Shown: positions 7,951-58,910, numbered from the whole stretch's first letter. The stretch is 63,999 bases of DNA, filler included, from Basidiobolus ranarum (GCA_040143965.1; 8 parts of 8 records of this genome joined end to end with filler, not necessarily neighbours in it); one strand, 5' to 3'. Translations and numbers: made by a program. The notes: a model not told the origin generated them from the letters alone.

Positions 7951-8050
7951 NNNNNNNNNNNNNNNNNNNNNNNNNNNNNNNNNNNNNNNNNNNNTTAATT
8001 AATTAANNNNNNNNNNNNNNNNNNNNNNNNNNNNNNNNNNNNNNNNNNNN
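7951..8050. other. Artificial contig linker
   Basis: 44 N + TTAATTAATTAA (stops in all six frames) + 44 N. Confidence 0.98.
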
Positions 8051-15998: not shown

Positions 15999-16098
15999 NN
16001 NNNNNNNNNNNNNNNNNNNNNNNNNNNNNNNNNNNNNNNNNNTTAATTAATTAANNNNNNNNNNNNNNNNNNNNNNNNNNNNNNNNNNNNNNNNNNNN
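15999..16098. other. Artificial contig linker
   Basis: Same N44-TTAATTAATTAA-N44 spacer. Confidence 0.98.
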
Positions 16099-24044: not shown

Positions 24045-24144
24045 NNNNNNNNNNNNNNNNNNNNNNNNNNNNNNNNNNNNNNNNNNNNTTAATTAATTAA
24101 NNNNNNNNNNNNNNNNNNNNNNNNNNNNNNNNNNNNNNNNNNNN
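24045..24144. other. Artificial contig linker
   Basis: Same spacer. Confidence 0.98.
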
Positions 24145-32078: not shown

Positions 32079-32178
32079 NNNNNNNNNNNNNNNNNNNNNN
32101 NNNNNNNNNNNNNNNNNNNNNNTTAATTAATTAANNNNNNNNNNNNNNNNNNNNNNNNNNNNNNNNNNNNNNNNNNNN
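32079..32178. other. Artificial contig linker
   Basis: Same spacer. Confidence 0.98.
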
Positions 32179-40103: not shown

Positions 40104-40203
40104 NNNNNNNNNNNNNNNNNNNNNNNNNNNNNNNNNNNNNNNNNNNNTTAATTAATTAANNNNNNNNNNNNNNNNNNNNNNNNNNNNNNNNNNNNNNNNN
40201 NNN
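40104..40203. other. Artificial contig linker
   Basis: Same spacer. Confidence 0.98.
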
Positions 40204-48118: not shown

Positions 48119-48218
48119 NNNNNNNNNNNNNNNNNNNNNNNNNNNNNNNNNNNNNNNNNNNNTTAATTAATTAANNNNNNNNNNNNNNNNNNNNNNNNNN
48201 NNNNNNNNNNNNNNNNNN
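48119..48218. other. Artificial contig linker
   Basis: Same spacer. Confidence 0.98.
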
Positions 48219-48649
48219 TAATACAGACATGAGGTTACAAGCTTGTAAAAGTGAATGTTATATTTTCATTAACTATCTGTTGAATAATGGAATTTTACAA
48301 TAGCGCTTTCCAATTTAGCTTAATGAAAGTAAAAGTTTGTCAAACCAAATTGAGTTGCTTATACCTATAGAGCTTTTAGTAAGCTTAAGCTCATAAACCA
48401 GGAGTGAATGGCTAATCCTGAGTATCCCTATTTTAAAAGATTATCTTGTCCAAATAAGTGAAGTTTACATTATAACCTTCCGCTCTAGCTTTATGAATTG
48501 AAAAATTTGTGAAAGAAGTTCGCCCGGTGTGATGTACGTATATAACATCTATTAAGCTCACACCTACATACCATGGATGAATACCTAATCCGGAGTATTG
48601 CCATTAGAAAATTTCTTACCATTGATTCAACAAAATTAAATCTTGCCCA

Positions 48650-48656
48650 TATAAAA
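48650..48656 (+). promoter_or_regulatory. TATA box of peptide-precursor copy 1
   Basis: TATAAAA 77 bp before the ATG; same position in all five copies. Confidence 0.7.
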
Positions 48657-48726
48657 TGACCCACTATGGCCTTGTGTTCTGACAACTTCGCTTTGTATTT
48701 GGAACAATTCATCTACCATTCTAGTT

Positions 48727-49410
48727 ATGTATCTCCAAGTTACCCTCATCAACGTAATCTTGTTTGCCTCTCTCGCAAGTGCATCTGATACTAAACTAAG
48801 TACCTCTACTGAGAATTTTTCTCCGACTACAGCTACCACTCTCCCAGCAAGTGAGAACATAGTGCTGGGTACTGGTGCTGGTGTCTTCATTCCCGACTTC
48901 TTATTGGATGAGAATATCGAACTCACTCCTGAAGAATCACAGTTGCGTAGTGTTAACCTTAGGAAAATATTGGCTCGTTTGTCCGAATTCACTACTGGTA
49001 GGAAAGGGAAATTCGGACGATCAAAATTCGATAAAACCGATGAAGTTATGACAACGATAACTCCTGAAACTGGTGGTCAAAATACGAATATTTTAATTAG
49101 CTCTGCCAGTGCCATCGCTCCTGATTCAGACAATGTGGGGGACACCGATAGTGGTGACAATGCTGTTGAAGAAGGAAATACGGATTTGGATACTTCTCCT
49201 GAAGAGACTGAGTTGCGACGTGGAGGGCGTGGTGGCCGCGGAGGTCGAGGTGGGCGTGGACGTGGTCGATTTGGCAGAGGTGGAAGATTCGGTCGTTTTG
49301 GTGGTCGCAGATTTGGTAGATTTGGTAGGTTTGGTAGATTCGGGAGATTTGGCGGCTGGGAATCTGGATGGAACGATAACTGCGGTGGAGATGACTGTGG
49401 AGATTGCTAA
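48727..49410 (+). CDS. Secreted Gly/Arg/Phe-rich peptide precursor, copy 1 (227 aa)
   Basis: Signal peptide MYLQVTLINVILFASLASA, acidic pro-region, SPEETELRR, then the 62-aa GGRGGR...FGRFGRFGGWESGWNDNCGGDDCGDC*. Confidence 0.9.
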   Translation: MYLQVTLINVILFASLASASDTKLSTSTENFSPTTATTLPASENIVLGTGAGVFIPDFLLDENIELTPEESQLRSVNLRKILARLSEFTTGRKGKFGRSKFDKTDEVMTTITPETGGQNTNILISSASAIAPDSDNVGDTDSGDNAVEEGNTDLDTSPEETELRRGGRGGRGGRGGRGRGRFGRGGRFGRFGGRRFGRFGRFGRFGRFGGWESGWNDNCGGDDCGDC

Positions 49411-49916
49411 GGAATTTGATTTTAAAAAAAGAAAAATATCTCACAAATCTGTTTATTTTTGTAACTGCAACTTGTTTACAAATCTTTGGCACAATTAATA
49501 AATTGCAAATTCAATCAACCCAGTAACTCTTTACGGATATCTTTCATGCCAGTAAAGTAGGGAATAAATCCAATTCAACCAAAAATTAATGTTTTGATAG
49601 TGAATTTGCAAATAAGATCAGGACTTACAATATTTGAATTCAAACAGGTCCAATAAACGTTATCCATCAATGTTAATCACAATAATAGTTAATTTTATAG
49701 TAAACCTCGCTCTGAAACAAGAGTTTCTATTTAATATAATATTTTCTCATGTGATAAAATTACTAGATTTAGTATACTACATACGCACTCTATTTTCCAT
49801 CTCTTCTGAGCAATTGTATGTAATAGCCACACAGTTGTATCTTGATTCAATTCTTAAGCCGGAGTACTATCAAGAATTCTTTGAACTATTAATGTAATAA
49901 AGCCAAACTTTGCGCG

Positions 49917-49923
49917 TATAAAA
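49917..49923 (+). promoter_or_regulatory. TATA box of copy 2
   Basis: TATAAAA 76 bp before ATG 49993. Confidence 0.65.
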
Positions 49924-49992
49924 CAACCGGTAATGTACCTATTTTATGACAGCCTCGCATTGCTTTTCAACGGCCACTCAACCATTCCAAAT

Positions 49993-50664
49993 ATGTATCC
50001 TCAAATTATCTTTATCAGTACTATTTTGTTTGCCTCTTTCACTAATGCATCTGATACGAAGCTAAGTACACCCGCTGAGGATGCTCCTTTATCCACTGCA
50101 TTCACCTTGCCAGCAAATGAGAACATGATGTTAGACACTGGATTCGGCTTTTTCATTCCAGAATTCATGTTGAATGAAGTGGCCACACTCACTCCCGAAG
50201 AATCTCATTTGCGCCGTATCAACCTTAGAAAAATATTTGTTCGCTTGTCCAAGGCCTCTCCGGTTAAACATGCAATTAGAACACTTCCTGAAACTAGCGG
50301 CCAAGATACAAATACTCCTATCATTTCTGACAGCGTTACCGTACCTGACTCAGACAAAGTTGAAGACACGGATGTTGACTACAATACAGATGATGAAGGA
50401 AATACGAATTTGGGTACTTCTCCGGAAGAAACTGAGTTGCGACGTGGAGGACGCGGTGGTCGCAGAGGTCGAGGTGGACGCGGACGTGGGGGTAGAGGAG
50501 GTCGAGGACATGGTCGCTTTGGTCGTGGCCGATTTGGAAGAAGCGGAAGGTTTGGGCGTTTTGGTGGTCGCAGATTTGGTAGGTTTGGTAGATTCGGGAT
50601 ATTTAGCGGCTGGGGATTTGATTGGAATGATGACTGCAGTGGAGATGACTGTGGAGATTGTTAG
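49993..50664 (+). CDS. Secreted Gly/Arg/Phe-rich peptide precursor, copy 2
   Basis: Homologous start MYPQIIFISTILFASFTNA (ATG 49993, not 49933); LTPEESHLRR; SPEETELRR; ends GWGFDWNDDCSGDDCGDC*. Confidence 0.9.
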   Translation: MYPQIIFISTILFASFTNASDTKLSTPAEDAPLSTAFTLPANENMMLDTGFGFFIPEFMLNEVATLTPEESHLRRINLRKIFVRLSKASPVKHAIRTLPETSGQDTNTPIISDSVTVPDSDKVEDTDVDYNTDDEGNTNLGTSPEETELRRGGRGGRRGRGGRGRGGRGGRGHGRFGRGRFGRSGRFGRFGGRRFGRFGRFGIFSGWGFDWNDDCSGDDCGDC

Positions 50665-51501
50665 TCAATTTGAATTCTCACCTTGAGCACCCTTAATGAC
50701 TTTAAAGATCAGTTTATACCACACTTTCACTCTTCCTCTCAACCAATTCAATAAAAAAGGTTTATATAGAACACAATCTGATCATTAGAAAGTTCTACTA
50801 GTAATAGGCAGTTCGGTTTGCAGATGAAACTATAATAGTCACTAGACGCCAATCGTGTATTATAGAAGTAGGAAAGAATTCGGTAATAATGATAATAAAT
50901 CCCGATATTAGTATCGACTTGTTTGCTTTGACTTCGGTAGATTCTGACATTTGTCCAATTTAGCGGCGGTTAATAAATCTATAGTTAAACTAACTTGGTA
51001 TCTCAACATTAGAATTTCTTCGTTAGTAATAAAAGTCATGATATCTGTGAATGAAGTGTTGCCTCAATATAATATCTTGATAATACCTCACATGGAGGAT
51101 TTGCTCAAAGTAGTAACTGCTGCTAAATTACCAAATTTTACCAGCGTGCAAAAATCTATAATTCAATTTACTCGTTGTTTTTTTACTATCAAAAGCAGTC
51201 ATACTTTTAATACATTAAGCGCGAAGTTCACTATGTTAAATACACATTCAACCCACAGTCTTAGTGATAGTTAATGTTAGGGATATAGTGATTTGGAACT
51301 TGAAGACAGATAATTACCAGTTTGAAAATGATAACAATATATTCCTCGGGTTTAGCCCCGTTAATGCAAAGAACCATCTAATAGTTTGGTAGTTGTATAA
51401 CATGTATTAACCTCACTCATATATTTAGGATGAATACTTGGTACTGATCATTACGATTGGAAATCTCTTCCTGTTGATATAAGAAAGTTACATCTTGCAC
51501 A

Positions 51502-51508
51502 TATAAAA
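51502..51508 (+). promoter_or_regulatory. TATA box of copy 3
   Basis: TATAAAA 76 bp before ATG 51578. Confidence 0.7.
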
Positions 51509-51577
51509 TGACTTGATATGTCGTTATTCTCTGACAGATTCGATTATCATTTCAACAAGTCATCTAGCGTTCCAAAG

Positions 51578-52276
51578 ATGCATCTCCAAATCACTTTTAG
51601 CAATGCCCTCATGTTTGCCTCTCTCGCTTATGCGTCTGGTACCAGGCCAAGTTTACCTGCTGAGAATGCTGCTCTAACCACATCTGTGACCATCCCAGCA
51701 AGTGATAACATGATATTCGAGACTGGCACCGACTACTTCATCCCTGATTTCATGTTAGATAAAGAGATCGCGCTCACTCCCGAAGAATCCCAATTGCGTC
51801 GTGTCAACCTTGGAAAAATATTTGCTCGCTTATCCAGGTCTTCTCCTGATAAGATAAGGAAACTGAGTCCATTCAAGTACCAAGAAACTGGTACACTCAT
51901 GCCGAGTATGATTCCTGATACTGGTGTGCAAAATCTAAATACTCAAGTCACCTCTGACAGCATTGCTGCACCTGATTCGGACAGAGTTGAGGACACGGAT
52001 GTTGACTACAGTGCAGATGGTGAAGGAAGCACGGATTTAGACACCTCTCCTGAAGAAACCGAGCTGCGACGTGGAGGGCGCGGTGGCCACGGACGTGGGG
52101 GTCGAGGACGTGGTCGCTTTGGAAGAGGCCGAGGACGCTTTGGTCGTGGCCGATTTGGCAGAGGTGGAAGATTCGGTCGTTTTGGTGGTCGCAGATTTGG
52201 TAGGTTTGGCAGGTTCAGCGGCTGGGGATCCGGATGGAATGATGACTGCGGTGGAGATGACTGTGGAGATTGTTAA
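51578..52276 (+). CDS. Secreted Gly/Arg/Phe-rich peptide precursor, copy 3
   Basis: MHLQITFSNALMFASLAYA; LTPEESQLRR; SPEETELRR; ends GWGSGWNDDCGGDDCGDC*. Confidence 0.9.
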   Translation: MHLQITFSNALMFASLAYASGTRPSLPAENAALTTSVTIPASDNMIFETGTDYFIPDFMLDKEIALTPEESQLRRVNLGKIFARLSRSSPDKIRKLSPFKYQETGTLMPSMIPDTGVQNLNTQVTSDSIAAPDSDRVEDTDVDYSADGEGSTDLDTSPEETELRRGGRGGHGRGGRGRGRFGRGRGRFGRGRFGRGGRFGRFGGRRFGRFGRFSGWGSGWNDDCGGDDCGDC

Positions 52277-52633
52277 TTAATTTGAGTTCAAAAATAAAGC
52301 ATTCTTAATGACTCTAAAAAAATCAGCATACACCACACGTGCACCCTATATTTCTCTCTTCCTCTCGATTAATTCAATAAAAAATGTTCTAAAGTATCAT
52401 TCAGAAGTTATACTAACGGCCGACACTTTGCTTTGCAGATACAACCACAATAGTGACTATGTTTACGATTCATTAAACGTTTAATAGATCTTGATAGTAG
52501 ATTTGTAGATCAGAGCAGGATTTACAATAACTTAATTTAGACGTCTCCAACAAATATGATCATCAAAATTAATCACAGTTATAGGCAATTCTGGTAATCC
52601 TCACTCTGAGGATGCGGGGGTCGGACCGCTTTG

Positions 52634-52729
52634 TTCGGCAGAGGTGAAAAATCCAAGTTTGGTAGATTCGGAAAATTCGGTGATTGGGAATCCGGATGGC
52701 ATGATGATTGTAGTGGATGAGATTGCTAG
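52634..52729 (+). pseudogene. Decayed remnant of a further precursor copy (C-terminal peptide)
   Basis: Translates FGRGEKSKFGRFGKFGDWESGWHDDCSG*DC*; no signal or pro-region upstream. Confidence 0.85.
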
Positions 52730-53027
52730 TCAATATGATTCCAAAAAAAGAAAAATCTCCACATCTCACAAATCAGTTTACATCACTTTCATATCTTTAT
52801 TACCCTCCTTCTAACTGCTGATCAAATAAAACGGCCGGATTTCAGTATGTCTCGAATGCACTGCGGATGGCAGATGGAGCATTTAAGAAGCTTATTATTT
52901 GAAGTAAAATATCTAAAAGATTAGTAATACTGTCATGTATTTACCATTTCGATATACATAACGTTATTGTTTGTTCCTGGTAACATAGGAACACTCGACC
53001 CATCGAAAAACCGATAAACTAAAGATA

Positions 53028-53129
53028 ATGGTAACTCCTGAAACAGGGGGCCAAGATACAACGCTTCCACATCTTTACGATGCCATCGTACCTGATTATG
53101 ATAAAGTTGAGTACACAGATGTTGATTAG
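53028..53129 (+). pseudogene. Decayed remnant of another precursor copy (pro-region)
   Basis: MVTPETGGQDTTLPHLYDAIVPDYDKVEYTDVD* compared with TPETGGQDTNT...PDSDKVEDTDVDY in intact copies. Confidence 0.8.
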
Positions 53130-53947
53130 CAACGGTTTGTATATCTAAACTTGGATAACAGGAGTTCATTTATCCAATTTAAGAACTGTTAATAAACTTA
53201 TAATTAAGCTAACTCAATATCGTCGTATAAACATTCCTTCGTTAGTAATTACCGCCATATTTCCAACATTAAACTTCGGATCAAGATTACTTCTTGATAG
53301 TAGTTCAGATTTGCACATCAGAGCAGGACTTAGATTTCCTAAATTTCCAACAGACGATGATGTCATCAACCAATTTTTGAAGAATGCAACACACTGAATC
53401 AGATTAGCTACGGCATACAACACTAACTTATATATTTCAGTCAATAATAAAGTTCATGTTTTCGATATATTAAATTAACATTCCACCTTTCGTCTTGAAA
53501 GCAGCTCATTACTATTCAATTCAAGACAAGTAATCACGAGCTTGCAAAAGTGAATATCATATTTTCATCAACTACTTGTTGAATAGTGAAATTTTCCAAT
53601 AGTGCTTTCCAATTTAGCTTAATGAAAGCAAAAGTTTGTCAAACAAAATTGACTTTTTTATACCTATAGAGCATGTGGTAAGCTCATACTCATAAACCCG
53701 GAGTGAGAAGTTAAACCTGAGTATCGCCATTTCAAAAGATTATCTTGTCCAAATAAGTGAATTTTCAATCCAACTCTCCACTCAAGCTTTATAAAATGAA
53801 CACTTTGTGAAGCAAGTTCGCTGAGTTTGATGTACGTACATAATATCTATTAAGCTCACACTTACATACCATGAATAAATACCTAATCTGGAGTATTGCC
53901 ATTAGAAAATGTCTTACCATTAATTCAACAAAATTAAATCTTGCCCA

Positions 53948-53954
53948 TATAAAA
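53948..53954 (+). promoter_or_regulatory. TATA box of copy 4
   Basis: TATAAAA 77 bp before ATG 54025. Confidence 0.7.
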
Positions 53955-54024
53955 TGACCCACTATGGCCTTGTTTGCTGACAACTTCGCTTTGTATTTGG
54001 AACAATTCATCTACCATTCTAGTT

Positions 54025-54669
54025 ATGTATCTCCAAATTACCCTCATCAACGCAATCTTGTTTGCCTCTCTCGCAAATGCATCTGATACTAAACCAAGTA
54101 CCTCTACTGAGAATTTTTCTCCGACTACAGCTACCACTTTCCCAGCAAGTGAGAACATAGTGCTGGGTACTGGTGCTGGCGTCTTCATTCCCGATTTCAT
54201 ATTGGATGAGGATGTTGCACTTACTCCTGACGAATCTCAATTGCGTCGTGTCAACCTTGGGAAAATATTTGCTCGCTTGTCCGAATTCACTCCTGGTAAG
54301 AAAGGGAAATCTAGTCGATCCCAATTCGATAAAACTGGTGAAGTTATGACAACGATGACTCCTGAAACAGGTGGTCAAGATACGAATACTCTAATCACCT
54401 CTGCCAGTGCTTTCGCACCTGATTCAGACAATGTGGGGGACACCAATAGTGGTTATAATGCTGTTGAAGAAGGAAATACGGATTTGGATGCTTCTCCTGA
54501 AGAAACTGAGTTGCGACGTGGAGGTCGAGGTGGACGCAGACGCGGACGTGGTCACTTTGGTAGAGGTGGAAGATTCGGTCGGTTTGGTGATTGTAGATTC
54601 GGGAGATTTGGTAGTTGGGGATCCGGATGGAACGATGACTGTGGTGGAGATGACTGTGGAGATTGCTAG
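54025..54669 (+). CDS. Secreted Gly/Arg/Phe-rich peptide precursor, copy 4 (closest to copy 1, shorter repeat)
   Basis: MYLQITLINAILFASLANA; LTPDESQLRR; SPEETELRR; GGRGGRRRGRGHFGRGGRFGRFGDCRFGRFGSWGSGWNDDCGGDDCGDC*. Confidence 0.9.
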   Translation: MYLQITLINAILFASLANASDTKPSTSTENFSPTTATTFPASENIVLGTGAGVFIPDFILDEDVALTPDESQLRRVNLGKIFARLSEFTPGKKGKSSRSQFDKTGEVMTTMTPETGGQDTNTLITSASAFAPDSDNVGDTNSGYNAVEEGNTDLDASPEETELRRGGRGGRRRGRGHFGRGGRFGRFGDCRFGRFGSWGSGWNDDCGGDDCGDC

Positions 54670-55491
54670 TTATTTAGAATCCAAAATGAGAAAACACTCA
54701 ATGACTCTGATAAATCTGTTTATGTCGATTTGAATTCAAAACTTGAATATCTTTGTTGCTTCCCACAAATGTTTCAATTTAATTTCCACATCGTTGTAAC
54801 TAACCTATTGACTAATCTAATAAAACGGTTTTGTATAGGAGGCAGTACCACACTATTATGAAATTGCAATAGTGTCCGGTGTTGTTCAACAAGTAAAAAA
54901 ATGAAAACTCTCAACAGTTGGTAATCTTTCCATCATAATTGAATTAAGTCGGTACCAGGCTAGTATCGTACTCTTTGCCAATAAATTGTTACATTTTCTG
55001 GAGGAAGAACAGTTTCAGTATCAAGTAATGCGGATGACATAAAGCAGATGGAACAGAAATATTTAGTAAACTTATGATATGAAGTAGAATCTCTAAATGA
55101 TTAGTAACATTATCACTGTTTTATCACATTGAAGCAGAGTAAATAACGTTGTGTTAATGTTCACACGGTTATAGAAACTTCACACAGTAGTAATTGCGGT
55201 CATACTTCCAGATCAACATTTCATCTGGATAGTAGTTTAAATGATGGATTTGCACATCAAAGCAGGACTTGAAATATCCTGAATTGCGTACCTGCAAAAA
55301 TGAATTTCGTATTATCATCAACTATTGGTCCAATAATGGAATCTTGCAATTTAGCTTAACGAAAACCAAAGTTTGTCAAACCAAATTGACATGTTTAGTT
55401 ATACCTATGTAGCATGTATTAAACTCACTTTCATATATCAGGAGTGAGTTCCTAGTCCTGAGTATCGCTATTTCACAAAATCTCTTGTCTG

Positions 55492-55498
55492 TATAAAA
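55492..55498 (+). promoter_or_regulatory. TATA box of copy 5
   Basis: TATAAAA 75 bp before ATG 55567. Confidence 0.65.
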
Positions 55499-55566
55499 GG
55501 ACCAAGTATCGCCCTTTTGTTCAACAGTTCAATTTGCTTTCCAATAAACAATCTACCATTACAAAG

Positions 55567-56130
55567 ATGTATCTCCAAATTACCCTTATCAACGCCATCC
55601 TATTTGCCTCCCTTGCAAGTGCATCTGATACTAAACTAAATACGCAGATTGAGAATTTTTCTCCAACTATAGCTACTACCTTCCCAGCGAGTGAAAACTT
55701 GATACTTAAGACTGGTACCGACTTCTTCATTCCCAATGTTATGCTCGATAAGAAGGTCGAGCTCACTCCCGAGGAATCTCAGATGCGTCGTGTTAAGCTT
55801 GGAAAAATACTCGCCCGCTTGTCCAAGTCAATTCCTGGTAAGATAGAGAAATTCAAGCCATCGAAGTTATTATATTATACGACAATACTTCCTGAAACTG
55901 ATGGTCAATACACAAACACTCCTATCACCTCCGATATCGTTACTGTACCTGATTCAGGCAATGTTGAGGATACTGAGGTTGATTACAGTGCGGATGGTGA
56001 AAGAAATACGAGTTTAGATACTTCTCCTGAAGAAACTGAGTTGCGACGTGGAGGTCGAGGTGGACGTGGAGGCCGTGGTCGTGGTGGGTGAGGGAGAGGG
56101 CGAGGAGGCGTTGGTGGGTGTCGCTTTTGG
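55567..56130 (+). CDS. Secreted Gly/Arg/Phe-rich peptide precursor, copy 5, running into the contig end (apparent TGA at 56089-56091 lies in noisy terminal sequence)
   Basis: MYLQITLINAILFASLASA; LTPEESQMRR; SPEETELRRGGRGGRGGRGRGG. GR-like codons continue after the TGA up to the linker. Confidence 0.82.
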
Positions 56131-56230
56131 NNNNNNNNNNNNNNNNNNNNNNNNNNNNNNNNNNNNNNNNNNNNTTAATTAATTAANNNNNNNNNNNNNN
56201 NNNNNNNNNNNNNNNNNNNNNNNNNNNNNN
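56131..56230. other. Artificial contig linker
   Basis: Same spacer. Confidence 0.98.

Positions 56231-56337: not shown

Positions 56338-58910
<2,573 letters not shown>

Follow-up and report, generated by a model that had tools for sequence, protein, structure and literature searches.

Fungal Kex2-processed repeat proteins (KEPs) are precursors in which repeat units are separated by RR or KR sites (PMC7329392, PMC6339444), and K2PP proteins (Outram 2021, PMC8528282) are described as having a signal, a disordered N-terminal pro-domain, a single KR, RR or LxxR junction and one C-terminal product. Kex2 is reported to prefer Arg at P1 with Lys or Arg at P2, and an aliphatic residue at P4 (PMC8528282). 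A 63,999-nt stretch of Basidiobolus ranarum DNA (GCA_040143965.1), referred to as the window, contains a tandem array of genes at 48727-56130 that encode proteins of a comparable layout. These proteins, referred to as the G/R/F family, have a signal-like start and an acidic pro-region, which together form the leader, followed by a cargo rich in Gly, Arg and Phe. The family appears to work like a Kex2-type prepro precursor, in which the cargo and the leader family are undescribed and the logic of the system is familiar. The reading tentatively favoured here is that it represents a Basidiobolus-restricted family of secreted disordered prepro-proteins, the released polycation of which would be an antimicrobial-type peptide.

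As far as they are described in these papers, KEPs (Le Marquer 2019, PMC6339444; Umemura 2020, PMC7329392) and the G/R/F family share a pro-region and a dibasic junction, and both are lineage-restricted and often duplicated; the signal-like start of the G/R/F family would correspond to the endoplasmic reticulum (ER) signal of KEPs. However, the G/R/F cargo does not contain at least three like units between KR or RR sites, which define a KEP, whereas the paralogue P0010 described below does. The G/R/F family resembles the K2PP proteins, as Outram et al. outline them, in that a disordered pro-domain lies directly ahead of RR (in eight of ten members). It differs from them in that the K2PP motif is found within the N-terminal half, ahead of a folded domain. 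In the G/R/F proteins of 214-232 aa, by contrast, the junction falls at residue 151-165, and a disordered product is predicted. The pro-domain of K2PP proteins is a short one, described in folded effectors of plant pathogens, whereas the G/R/F pro-region accounts for ~65-70% of the chain and the organism is no plant pathogen. The initial annotation of this locus proposed an undescribed fungal peptide system. The cargo is indeed new, but "system" is overstated for what is apparently a Kex2-type prepro precursor in a genus reported to be the richest in KEPs (PMC7329392).

Architecture and conservation of the G/R/F proteins

The array consists of four intact co-oriented intronless genes, an interrupted copy 5 and two decayed remnants, all on one contig, so that the amplified family noticed initially amounts to five copies and two remnants. 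Copy 1 (48727-49410, + strand) encodes 227 aa, with the signal-like start at 48727-48783, the pro-region at 48784-49221 and the cargo with its tail at 49222-49407. The same parts lie at 49993-50049, 50050-50445 and 50446-50661 in copy 2 (49993-50664, + strand, 223 aa) and at 51578-51634, 51635-52072 and 52073-52273 in copy 3 (51578-52276, + strand, 232 aa). In copy 4 (54025-54669, + strand, 214 aa), they lie at 54025-54081, 54082-54519 and 54520-54666, the last being shortened. Copy 5 (55567-56130, + strand) is open for 174 codons (55567-56091) and then interrupted by an in-frame TGA at 56089-56091. The next 39 bases read GRGRGGVGGCRFW in the same frame, which is G/R-rich up to the contig end at 56130. 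Either a nonsense mutation or an error at the end of the assembly accounts for this stop. Thus, of the five co-oriented intronless genes counted in the initial annotation, all five are present as open reading frames (ORFs) on the + strand and four are intact, but copy 5 is incomplete. The assembly break evidently falls inside the repeat, and the array probably extends past the contig.

A TATAAAA box is located 75-77 nt 5' of the ATG in all five copies (at 48650, 49917, 51502, 53948 and 55492). The ORFs of copies 2 and 3 open earlier than the conserved ATGs at 49993 and 51578, at 49933 and 51518 respectively, and the ATG at 49933 is not conserved. The conserved ATGs are the true starts, because Met-1 is invariant in ten aligned members, the TATAAAA box lies at a constant distance upstream of it, and the earlier in-frame ATGs lie only ~10 nt past this box.

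Each intact gene encodes a signal-like start, an acidic disordered pro-region ending in SPEETELRR, a 49-72-residue G/R/F cargo and an acidic Trp/Cys tail. The mean Kyte-Doolittle hydropathy of the start is 1.3-2.0 over residues 3-17, and small residues occupy positions -3 and -1 (ASA, TNA, AYA, ANA and ASA) ahead of S-D or S-G. A hydrophobic N-terminus with small residues at these positions is kept in all full-length members. The pro-region had been described as rich in Asp, Glu, Thr and Ser, in agreement with the measured 23-26 Asp and Glu and 28-36 Ser and Thr in its 132-146 aa; its net charge ranges from -6 to -13 in the window copies and from -12 to -13 in the intact ones. SPEETELRR, initially regarded as invariant, is present in all five window copies, but the dibasic site is not universal in the wider family, with ELRR in eight of ten aligned members.

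In the four intact copies, the cargo has a length of 49-72 aa, with 37-42% Gly, 20-25% Arg, 10-13% Phe and a net charge of +4 to +12 (+10 to +12 in three of them). The composition given initially for the copy 1 peptide is exact: the 62 aa that follow ELRR include 15 Arg, 8 Phe and 5 acidic residues. In the wider family, the cargo is 37-45% Gly, 20-35% Arg and 10-13% Phe, with these three residues making up 67-92% of it in regular FGR or GRFGR units, and it reaches 78 residues in B. ranarum relatives. Intact cargos hold 3-4 Cys, all but one within the last 10 residues, and six of nine complete members have three Cys, an odd number. The conserved acidic Trp/Cys tail reported initially, of the W..WNDDCGGDDCGDC type, is present in four of the five window copies but is not seen in the interrupted copy 5. 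Dibasic sites number 0-3 per cargo and delimit fragments that do not resemble one another. An internal RR (..FGGRR/FGRFG..) is found at the same aligned position in five of the nine complete members. QLRR or QMRR occurs in a conserved helix of the pro-region in most members and is altered in copy 1 and three B. ranarum members.

The precursor proteins are predicted to be intrinsically disordered. AlphaFold2, run on a 10-sequence alignment, gives a mean pLDDT (predicted local distance difference test) of 44.9, with helices only at residues 3-17 (the signal) and 68-90. The latter helix covers the conserved TPEESQLRRVNLGKIFARLS stretch (TPEESQLR.VNL.KI.ARLS) at a pLDDT of 60-68, and the pro-region outside it is below 50. 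The ESM Atlas model of copy 3 has a pLDDT of 0.41, and the structure matches retrieved with this model (TM score at most 0.27) are meaningless; no usable feature match for copy 3 is found in the Atlas. The charges come in successive blocks: first a weakly acidic one, then a basic one at the helix region, a strongly acidic one, the strongly basic cargo and the acidic tail. In the nine complete members, the net charge is -10 to -18 for the pro-region and +4 to +25 for the cargo. With the signal left out, the proprotein is nearly neutral, its net charge being -3 to +1 in six of them and -8, +5 and +8 in the other three. The charge segregation parameter kappa is 0.32-0.40, above the maximum of 200 shuffles in all nine. 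The pro-region and cargo charges are weakly correlated (r = -0.55, for nine non-independent members).

Ratios of nonsynonymous to synonymous substitution rates (dN/dS) were calculated by the Nei-Gojobori method, for whole genes in all 10 pairs and for the cargo with its tail in 6 pairs, from which copy 5 was excluded because this region is missing. The whole-gene dN/dS is 0.25-0.38 at a synonymous rate (dS) of 0.23-0.92. By region, it is 0.04-0.36 for the signal part, 0.31-0.49 for the pro-region and 0.06-0.18 for the cargo with its tail (at dS 0.4-0.9), although the low-complexity cargo block aligns less certainly than the other regions. The cargo therefore appears to be the most constrained part, under purifying selection. 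The array members are real genes under selection, because of the whole-gene dN/dS, the TATAAAA box upstream of all five ATGs and the presence of colinear B. ranarum relatives. Copies 1 and 4 are 84% identical, with a dS of ~0.2 and upstream DNA that is 85-90% identical over ~540 nt (repeat families D7 and D10); copy 4 is thus a recent duplicate of copy 1. The remaining copies are old, and the pair of copies 1 and 4 is the sole grouping resolved in a tree of 12 members.

A conserved prepro leader is also combined with diverse cargos in the precursors of amphibian dermaseptin-type peptides and of cone-snail toxins, where an acidic spacer ends in a dibasic site. These types share no homology with the G/R/F family, and their mature peptide is hypervariable, whereas the cargo is the most conserved part in the G/R/F subfamily. 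The parallel with dermaseptin-type precursors drawn in the initial annotation fails in this respect, the cargo with its tail evolving more slowly than the pro-region, opposite to what is known for hypervariable mature peptides.

Relatives of the family and the shared leader

When copy 3 is compared with 5.8 billion proteins by a word-indexed search, seven matches are obtained, of which two are the window's own entries and five are B. ranarum proteins annotated as "hypothetical protein", colinear and 34-60% identical by BLASTP. The cargo with its tail alone gives six matches, all in the same family. A leader-only profile searched with HMMER against 1.84 billion representatives gives eight matches, namely one of the window's own proteins, six B. 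ranarum proteins and one spurious nematode protein. The latter, P0009, is a 4,135-aa repeat protein of Cylicocyclus nassatus that is matched at E 1.9e-17 in 14 stretches; it is rejected as a sum of weak repeat matches, its BLASTP E value to the leader being 13. The exact copy 1 and copy 4 proteins have no gene call in the public collection. No Pfam family matches any of the five window copies at E ≤1, or any of six relatives at E ≤0.01. A profile search of the PDB gives nothing significant, and its seven matches at E ≤1 (best 0.037) all fall on RG-rich tails and are rejected as compositional. No paper in the literature searched, which did not extend to bioRxiv supplements and PDFs, prints FGRFGRFG or GRFGRGRFGR, and Umemura 2020 (PMC7329392) alone combines Basidiobolus with Kex2. 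In the zygomycete secretome paper PMC9391592, as far as the genus is mentioned there, Basidiobolus appears only in connection with other families. The initial statement that no described family has this sequence is thus borne out, the relatives being uncharacterised Basidiobolus proteins only, and neither the leader profile nor the cargo query gives a strong match to a characterised family. As far as the databases reach, the family appears to be confined to Basidiobolus.

One look-alike, P0014 (204 aa, unnamed), comes from a run assembly and has a signal-like start, a very acidic region of net charge -27 and an FGR-repeat, Tyr-rich C-part of net charge +18. It is rejected as kin, its leader being unrelated (hhalign probability 0.9%; BLASTP E 0.017), and its best ESM Atlas scores (0.77 and 0.76) are under the bar of 0.9. 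Because P0014 has the same layout and an unrelated leader, the design of an acidic region followed by FGR repeats may have arisen more than once by convergence.

The leader-only search also retrieves divergent B. ranarum proteins that carry other cargos. One of them, the 204-aa protein K7432_017068 (P0010), begins with a signal-like stretch and contains the ..FLDEEIEITPEEGQLRR.. helix; its junction reads ..APEETELYRR and is followed by the cargo YGGS-RR-YDYDRY-RR-HDYDRY-RR-HDYDRY-RR-YGYDRY-RR-YGSG-RR-YGRSY. This cargo consists of seven RR-delimited pieces, including those of the x-D/G-Y-D-R-Y type, so that P0010 has the appearance of a classical Kex2-processed repeat protein. The reading of the leader/cargo junction of the G/R/F family as a Kex2-type site is supported, because P0010 carries RR-separated repeat peptides behind the same leader. 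Three further proteins, K7432_009612, K7432_009613 and K7432_009614 (P0012, P0013 and P0011), have consecutive locus tags on one 11.5-kb contig and share the N-part with different C-parts; K7432_009613 retains ..ARRSGRGGRGERGR, followed by a hydrophobic and acidic stretch. This arrangement suggests that mixed-cargo tandem clusters exist in B. ranarum. Among 14 aligned sequences, only the Thr-Pro of the TPEE motif is invariant. The leader is thus modular, and would serve as a reusable unit for export and processing that takes different cargos; this sharing of the leader is the new point of the present analysis.

According to Umemura 2020 (PMC7329392), B. meristosporus has 43 KEPs, the highest number among 1,461 fungal strains, and seven of them form a genus-specific type, S-3, with repeats rich in Tyr and Asp. 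P0010 probably fits the description of type S-3, a type for which that source offers a description and a table of accessions. The identification of the G/R/F family itself with type S-3 is rejected, because the S-3 repeats are Tyr/Asp-rich. Table S2 of that paper lists KEPs by accession without sequences, with runs of near-consecutive accession numbers.

Readings of the G/R/F cargo

In the favoured antimicrobial-type reading, the hydrophobic N-terminus of ~19 residues would take the chain into the ER, as judged from its hydrophobicity and the small residues at -3 and -1. The acidic pro-region of this chain would neutralise the cationic block and hold it soluble in transit, as the charge balance suggests. 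A Kex2-type convertase would then cut past ..PEETELRR in the late Golgi, a step to which both the motif and the RR-repeat paralogue P0010 point. The product would be a (GR)n(FGR)n polycation of 49-72 residues ending in the anionic tail with three Cys. Outside the cell, it would have no fixed fold and would bind to polyanionic surfaces by multivalent charge and cation-pi interactions, and the first-choice target would be the envelopes of competing microbes, in the manner of linear glycine-rich cationic peptides. One such peptide, armadillidin H, is described as linear, cationic, 47% Gly and devoid of secondary structure, and as permeabilising membranes (PMC5031766). As described there, armadillidin H and the G/R/F cargo are both ~40-47% Gly, cationic and structureless, have aromatic residues in a short repeat and are of similar size. 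However, armadillidin H is an animal peptide without sequence relationship to the fungal cargo, which is far richer in Arg and has an acidic Cys tail.

Antimicrobial-type action, which is tentatively ranked above an extracellular adhesive or condensate, is favoured by the peptide-releasing paralogues and by the classic balance between an anionic propiece and a cationic peptide. Several observations weigh against it. The cargo evolves more slowly than the leader, unlike arms-race antimicrobial peptides, and this slow evolution, the regular spacing of Arg and Phe, the odd Cys number and the invariant acidic tail lean to an adhesive or condensate. What this invariant three-Cys tail would do in a membrane-active peptide is not obvious, and Arg/Phe stickers with Gly spacers suit a condensate or adhesive at least equally well. 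The dibasic junction is lost in two of the ten aligned members (ELRH and ELR-G), and its P4 residue is Glu, compared with the aliphatic residue favoured by Kex2. In copy 4, the net charge of the shortened cargo (49 aa, 4 Cys) is just +4. The Pfam, PDB and protein-database searches reveal no relationship in sequence to any antimicrobial peptide, adhesive or RGG protein. Host RFamide mimicry, in which RFGR units would give amidated neuropeptide-like products, was also considered and dropped, because monobasic cutting would shred the block. To our knowledge, no fungal amidating enzyme is known.

The extracellular material to which these observations lean is possible, though doubtful. The Gly-spaced Arg and Phe stickers would coacervate by cation-pi interactions into a glue, a coat on the wall or a matrix. 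Whether it is cleaved off or stays attached, the acidic pro-region would delay condensation until release, and the three-Cys acidic tail would cross-link or anchor the chains. Basidiobolus spores must stick to arthropod cuticle, and an adhesive for this attachment is one candidate role. The dominance of Gly, Arg and Phe in regular units, the disorder of the whole protein in both the AlphaFold2 and ESM Atlas models, the segregation of charge blocks beyond all 200 shuffles in a near-neutral proprotein and the conserved odd Cys count are all consistent with such a material, and strong purifying selection on composition and tail combined with gene amplification fits a bulk product. A precedent is provided by tick cement GRP77, a secreted disordered glycine-rich protein of which the Arg/Phe-rich C-terminus is reported to coacervate by cation-pi and pi-pi interactions and the acidic N-terminus to delay the onset (bioRxiv 10.1101/2023.03.27.534361). 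In the account given there, GRP77 resembles the G/R/F family: both are Gly-rich and disordered, and in both an acidic N-part precedes an Arg/Phe C-part as sticker and spacer. GRP77 differs, however, in its size of 77 aa and in a C-part that contains only 4 Arg and 5 aromatic residues; the account describes no convertase site or Cys tail, and there is no sequence relationship. The G/R/F family shows no kinship to any known adhesive in Pfam and PDB profile searches either, and the tiny RR-separated peptides that the same leader carries in P0010 argue for peptide release rather than structure.

These peptides of P0010 also fit a quite improbable reading, in which the family is a precursor of small peptides of the signalling type or of the RiPP type (peptides made by ribosomes and then modified post-translationally), modified or not. 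It would be cut at the internal RR and the pro-region QLRR, or modified at the Trp/Cys tail, with the G/R/F block being mostly a spacer. The recurrence of the internal RR at one aligned place, the QLRR/QMRR site in the helix of most members and the tail, which is the best conserved stretch among the aligned members, point in this direction, and KEPs are reported to include RiPP precursors (PMC7329392). However, the internal RR is missing in four of the nine complete members, QLRR is changed in the four members named above, no repeated core units lie between the dibasic sites, and strong selection acts on the whole G/R/F block and not on the tail alone. Among the contig ORFs of at least 70 aa, no modifying enzyme is found, nor any DUF3328 (UstYa) candidate as expected for a ustiloxin-type (dikaritin) precursor, on a contig of only 7.9 kb. 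An intracellular RGG/FG-type nucleic-acid-binding or condensate protein, with a hydrophobic start that is not a signal peptide, is very unlikely. The RG and RGG motifs with Phe match the composition of nuclear GAR (glycine- and arginine-rich)/RGG domains, and the RG-rich tails on which the sole, non-significant PDB matches fall include those of LSm4 and SERBP1. However, the family differs from nuclear GAR/RGG-box proteins in having no RNA-binding or other Pfam domain, and every full-length member keeps the signal-like N-terminus; the cargos of paralogues that share the leader are of a kind typical for secreted Kex2 substrates. Hardly any credence can be given to decaying, non-functional repeat DNA with ORFs that are annotation noise. 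The stopped copy, the two decayed remnants and the lack of gene calls for copies 1 and 4 would agree with decay, but dN/dS is far below 1 in all ten pairs, four frames of 214-232 codons are still open, the TATA box is conserved, and the family is conserved in further B. ranarum proteins outside the window.

Contig context and meaning for the genus

The window is composed of eight contigs of ~8 kb in descending size, glued by N44-TTAATTAATTAA-N44 linkers (fourteen N44 runs) at 7951-8050, 15999-16098, 24045-24144, 32079-32178, 40104-40203, 48119-48218 and 56131-56230. Because these linkers are artificial, adjacency across them is not biological and inferences on neighbouring genes across them are unsafe. 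The real contig with the whole array is 48219-56130 (7,912 nt), flanked by the last two linkers, and in the protein database the window's own proteins are likewise assigned to a 7,912-nt contig. A tblastn search with family members gives nothing on the seven other contigs of the window. A 633-aa open frame at 56581-58482 (- strand) contains NAT, AA_kinase and semialdehyde dehydrogenase domains (Pfam), as in the fungal ARG5,6-type arginine biosynthesis fusion, and its Pfam matches are cut at both frame ends, consistent with flanking introns. This gene lies on a different contig and therefore gives no information on the array context.

The array contig contains 15 ATG-ORFs of at least 70 aa, five of which are the family genes. 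The other ten are three same-strand out-of-frame shadows, two antisense frames that overlap the start of copy 1 or copy 4, and five spacer ORFs of 73-78 aa. A DNA repeat finder detects the 5' half and the middle part of the gene five times each, at 70-77% identity to the reference copy and a spacing of 1.2-2.4 kb. Both decayed remnants sit between copies 3 and 4. The cargo/tail remnant (52619-52726, + strand) reads ..FGRFGKFGDWESGWHDDCSG.. and matches copy 3 residues 194-229 at a tblastn E value of 7e-7. The pro-region remnant (52989-53129, + strand) reads ..PETGGQDT..VPDYDKVEYTDVD and is identical to copy 2 residues 92-129 at 22 of 38 positions (BLASTP E 7e-10). A 92-nt spacer downstream of copy 2 (50948-51039) recurs with 72% identity at 53167-53258, just past the pro-region remnant, and this recurrence suggests that the remnant is a former copy-2-like unit minus its cargo. 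An 83-nt element (family D8, 64-82% identity) occurs five times, as pairs ~173 nt apart upstream of copy 1 (48359-48441 and 48532-48614) and copy 4 (53658-53740 and 53830-53912) and singly upstream of copy 5 (55399-55481). This element is perhaps a small repeat, or else a promoter-proximal element that was duplicated.

Lineage-specific low-complexity secreted proteins are common in fungal genomes, and if the G/R/F family is merely another orphan protein of this kind without a phenotype, it would be of modest interest. If the cargo is released as proposed, it would provide a new natural polycationic peptide scaffold, a candidate antimicrobial or bio-adhesive, from an under-studied gut and soil fungus that can infect people. 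The most novel possibility, although unlikely, is a modular system of secretion peculiar to Basidiobolus, in which one conserved leader, with the invariant TPEE helix and the PEETELRR junction, exports radically different cargos, including an Arg/Phe/Gly sticker-spacer polypeptide that is kept soluble by the acidic pro-region and condenses extracellularly, once cut, into a cross-linkable glue or coat. If true, no extracellular condensate triggered by a convertase would have been described in a fungus before. As a natural experiment, the array could also show how a polycation that is prone to condense or active on membranes is rendered harmless by an acidic pro-region within the secretory pathway. 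Because the leader is shared and the cargos are swapped, one profile could mine all peptide products of the genus.

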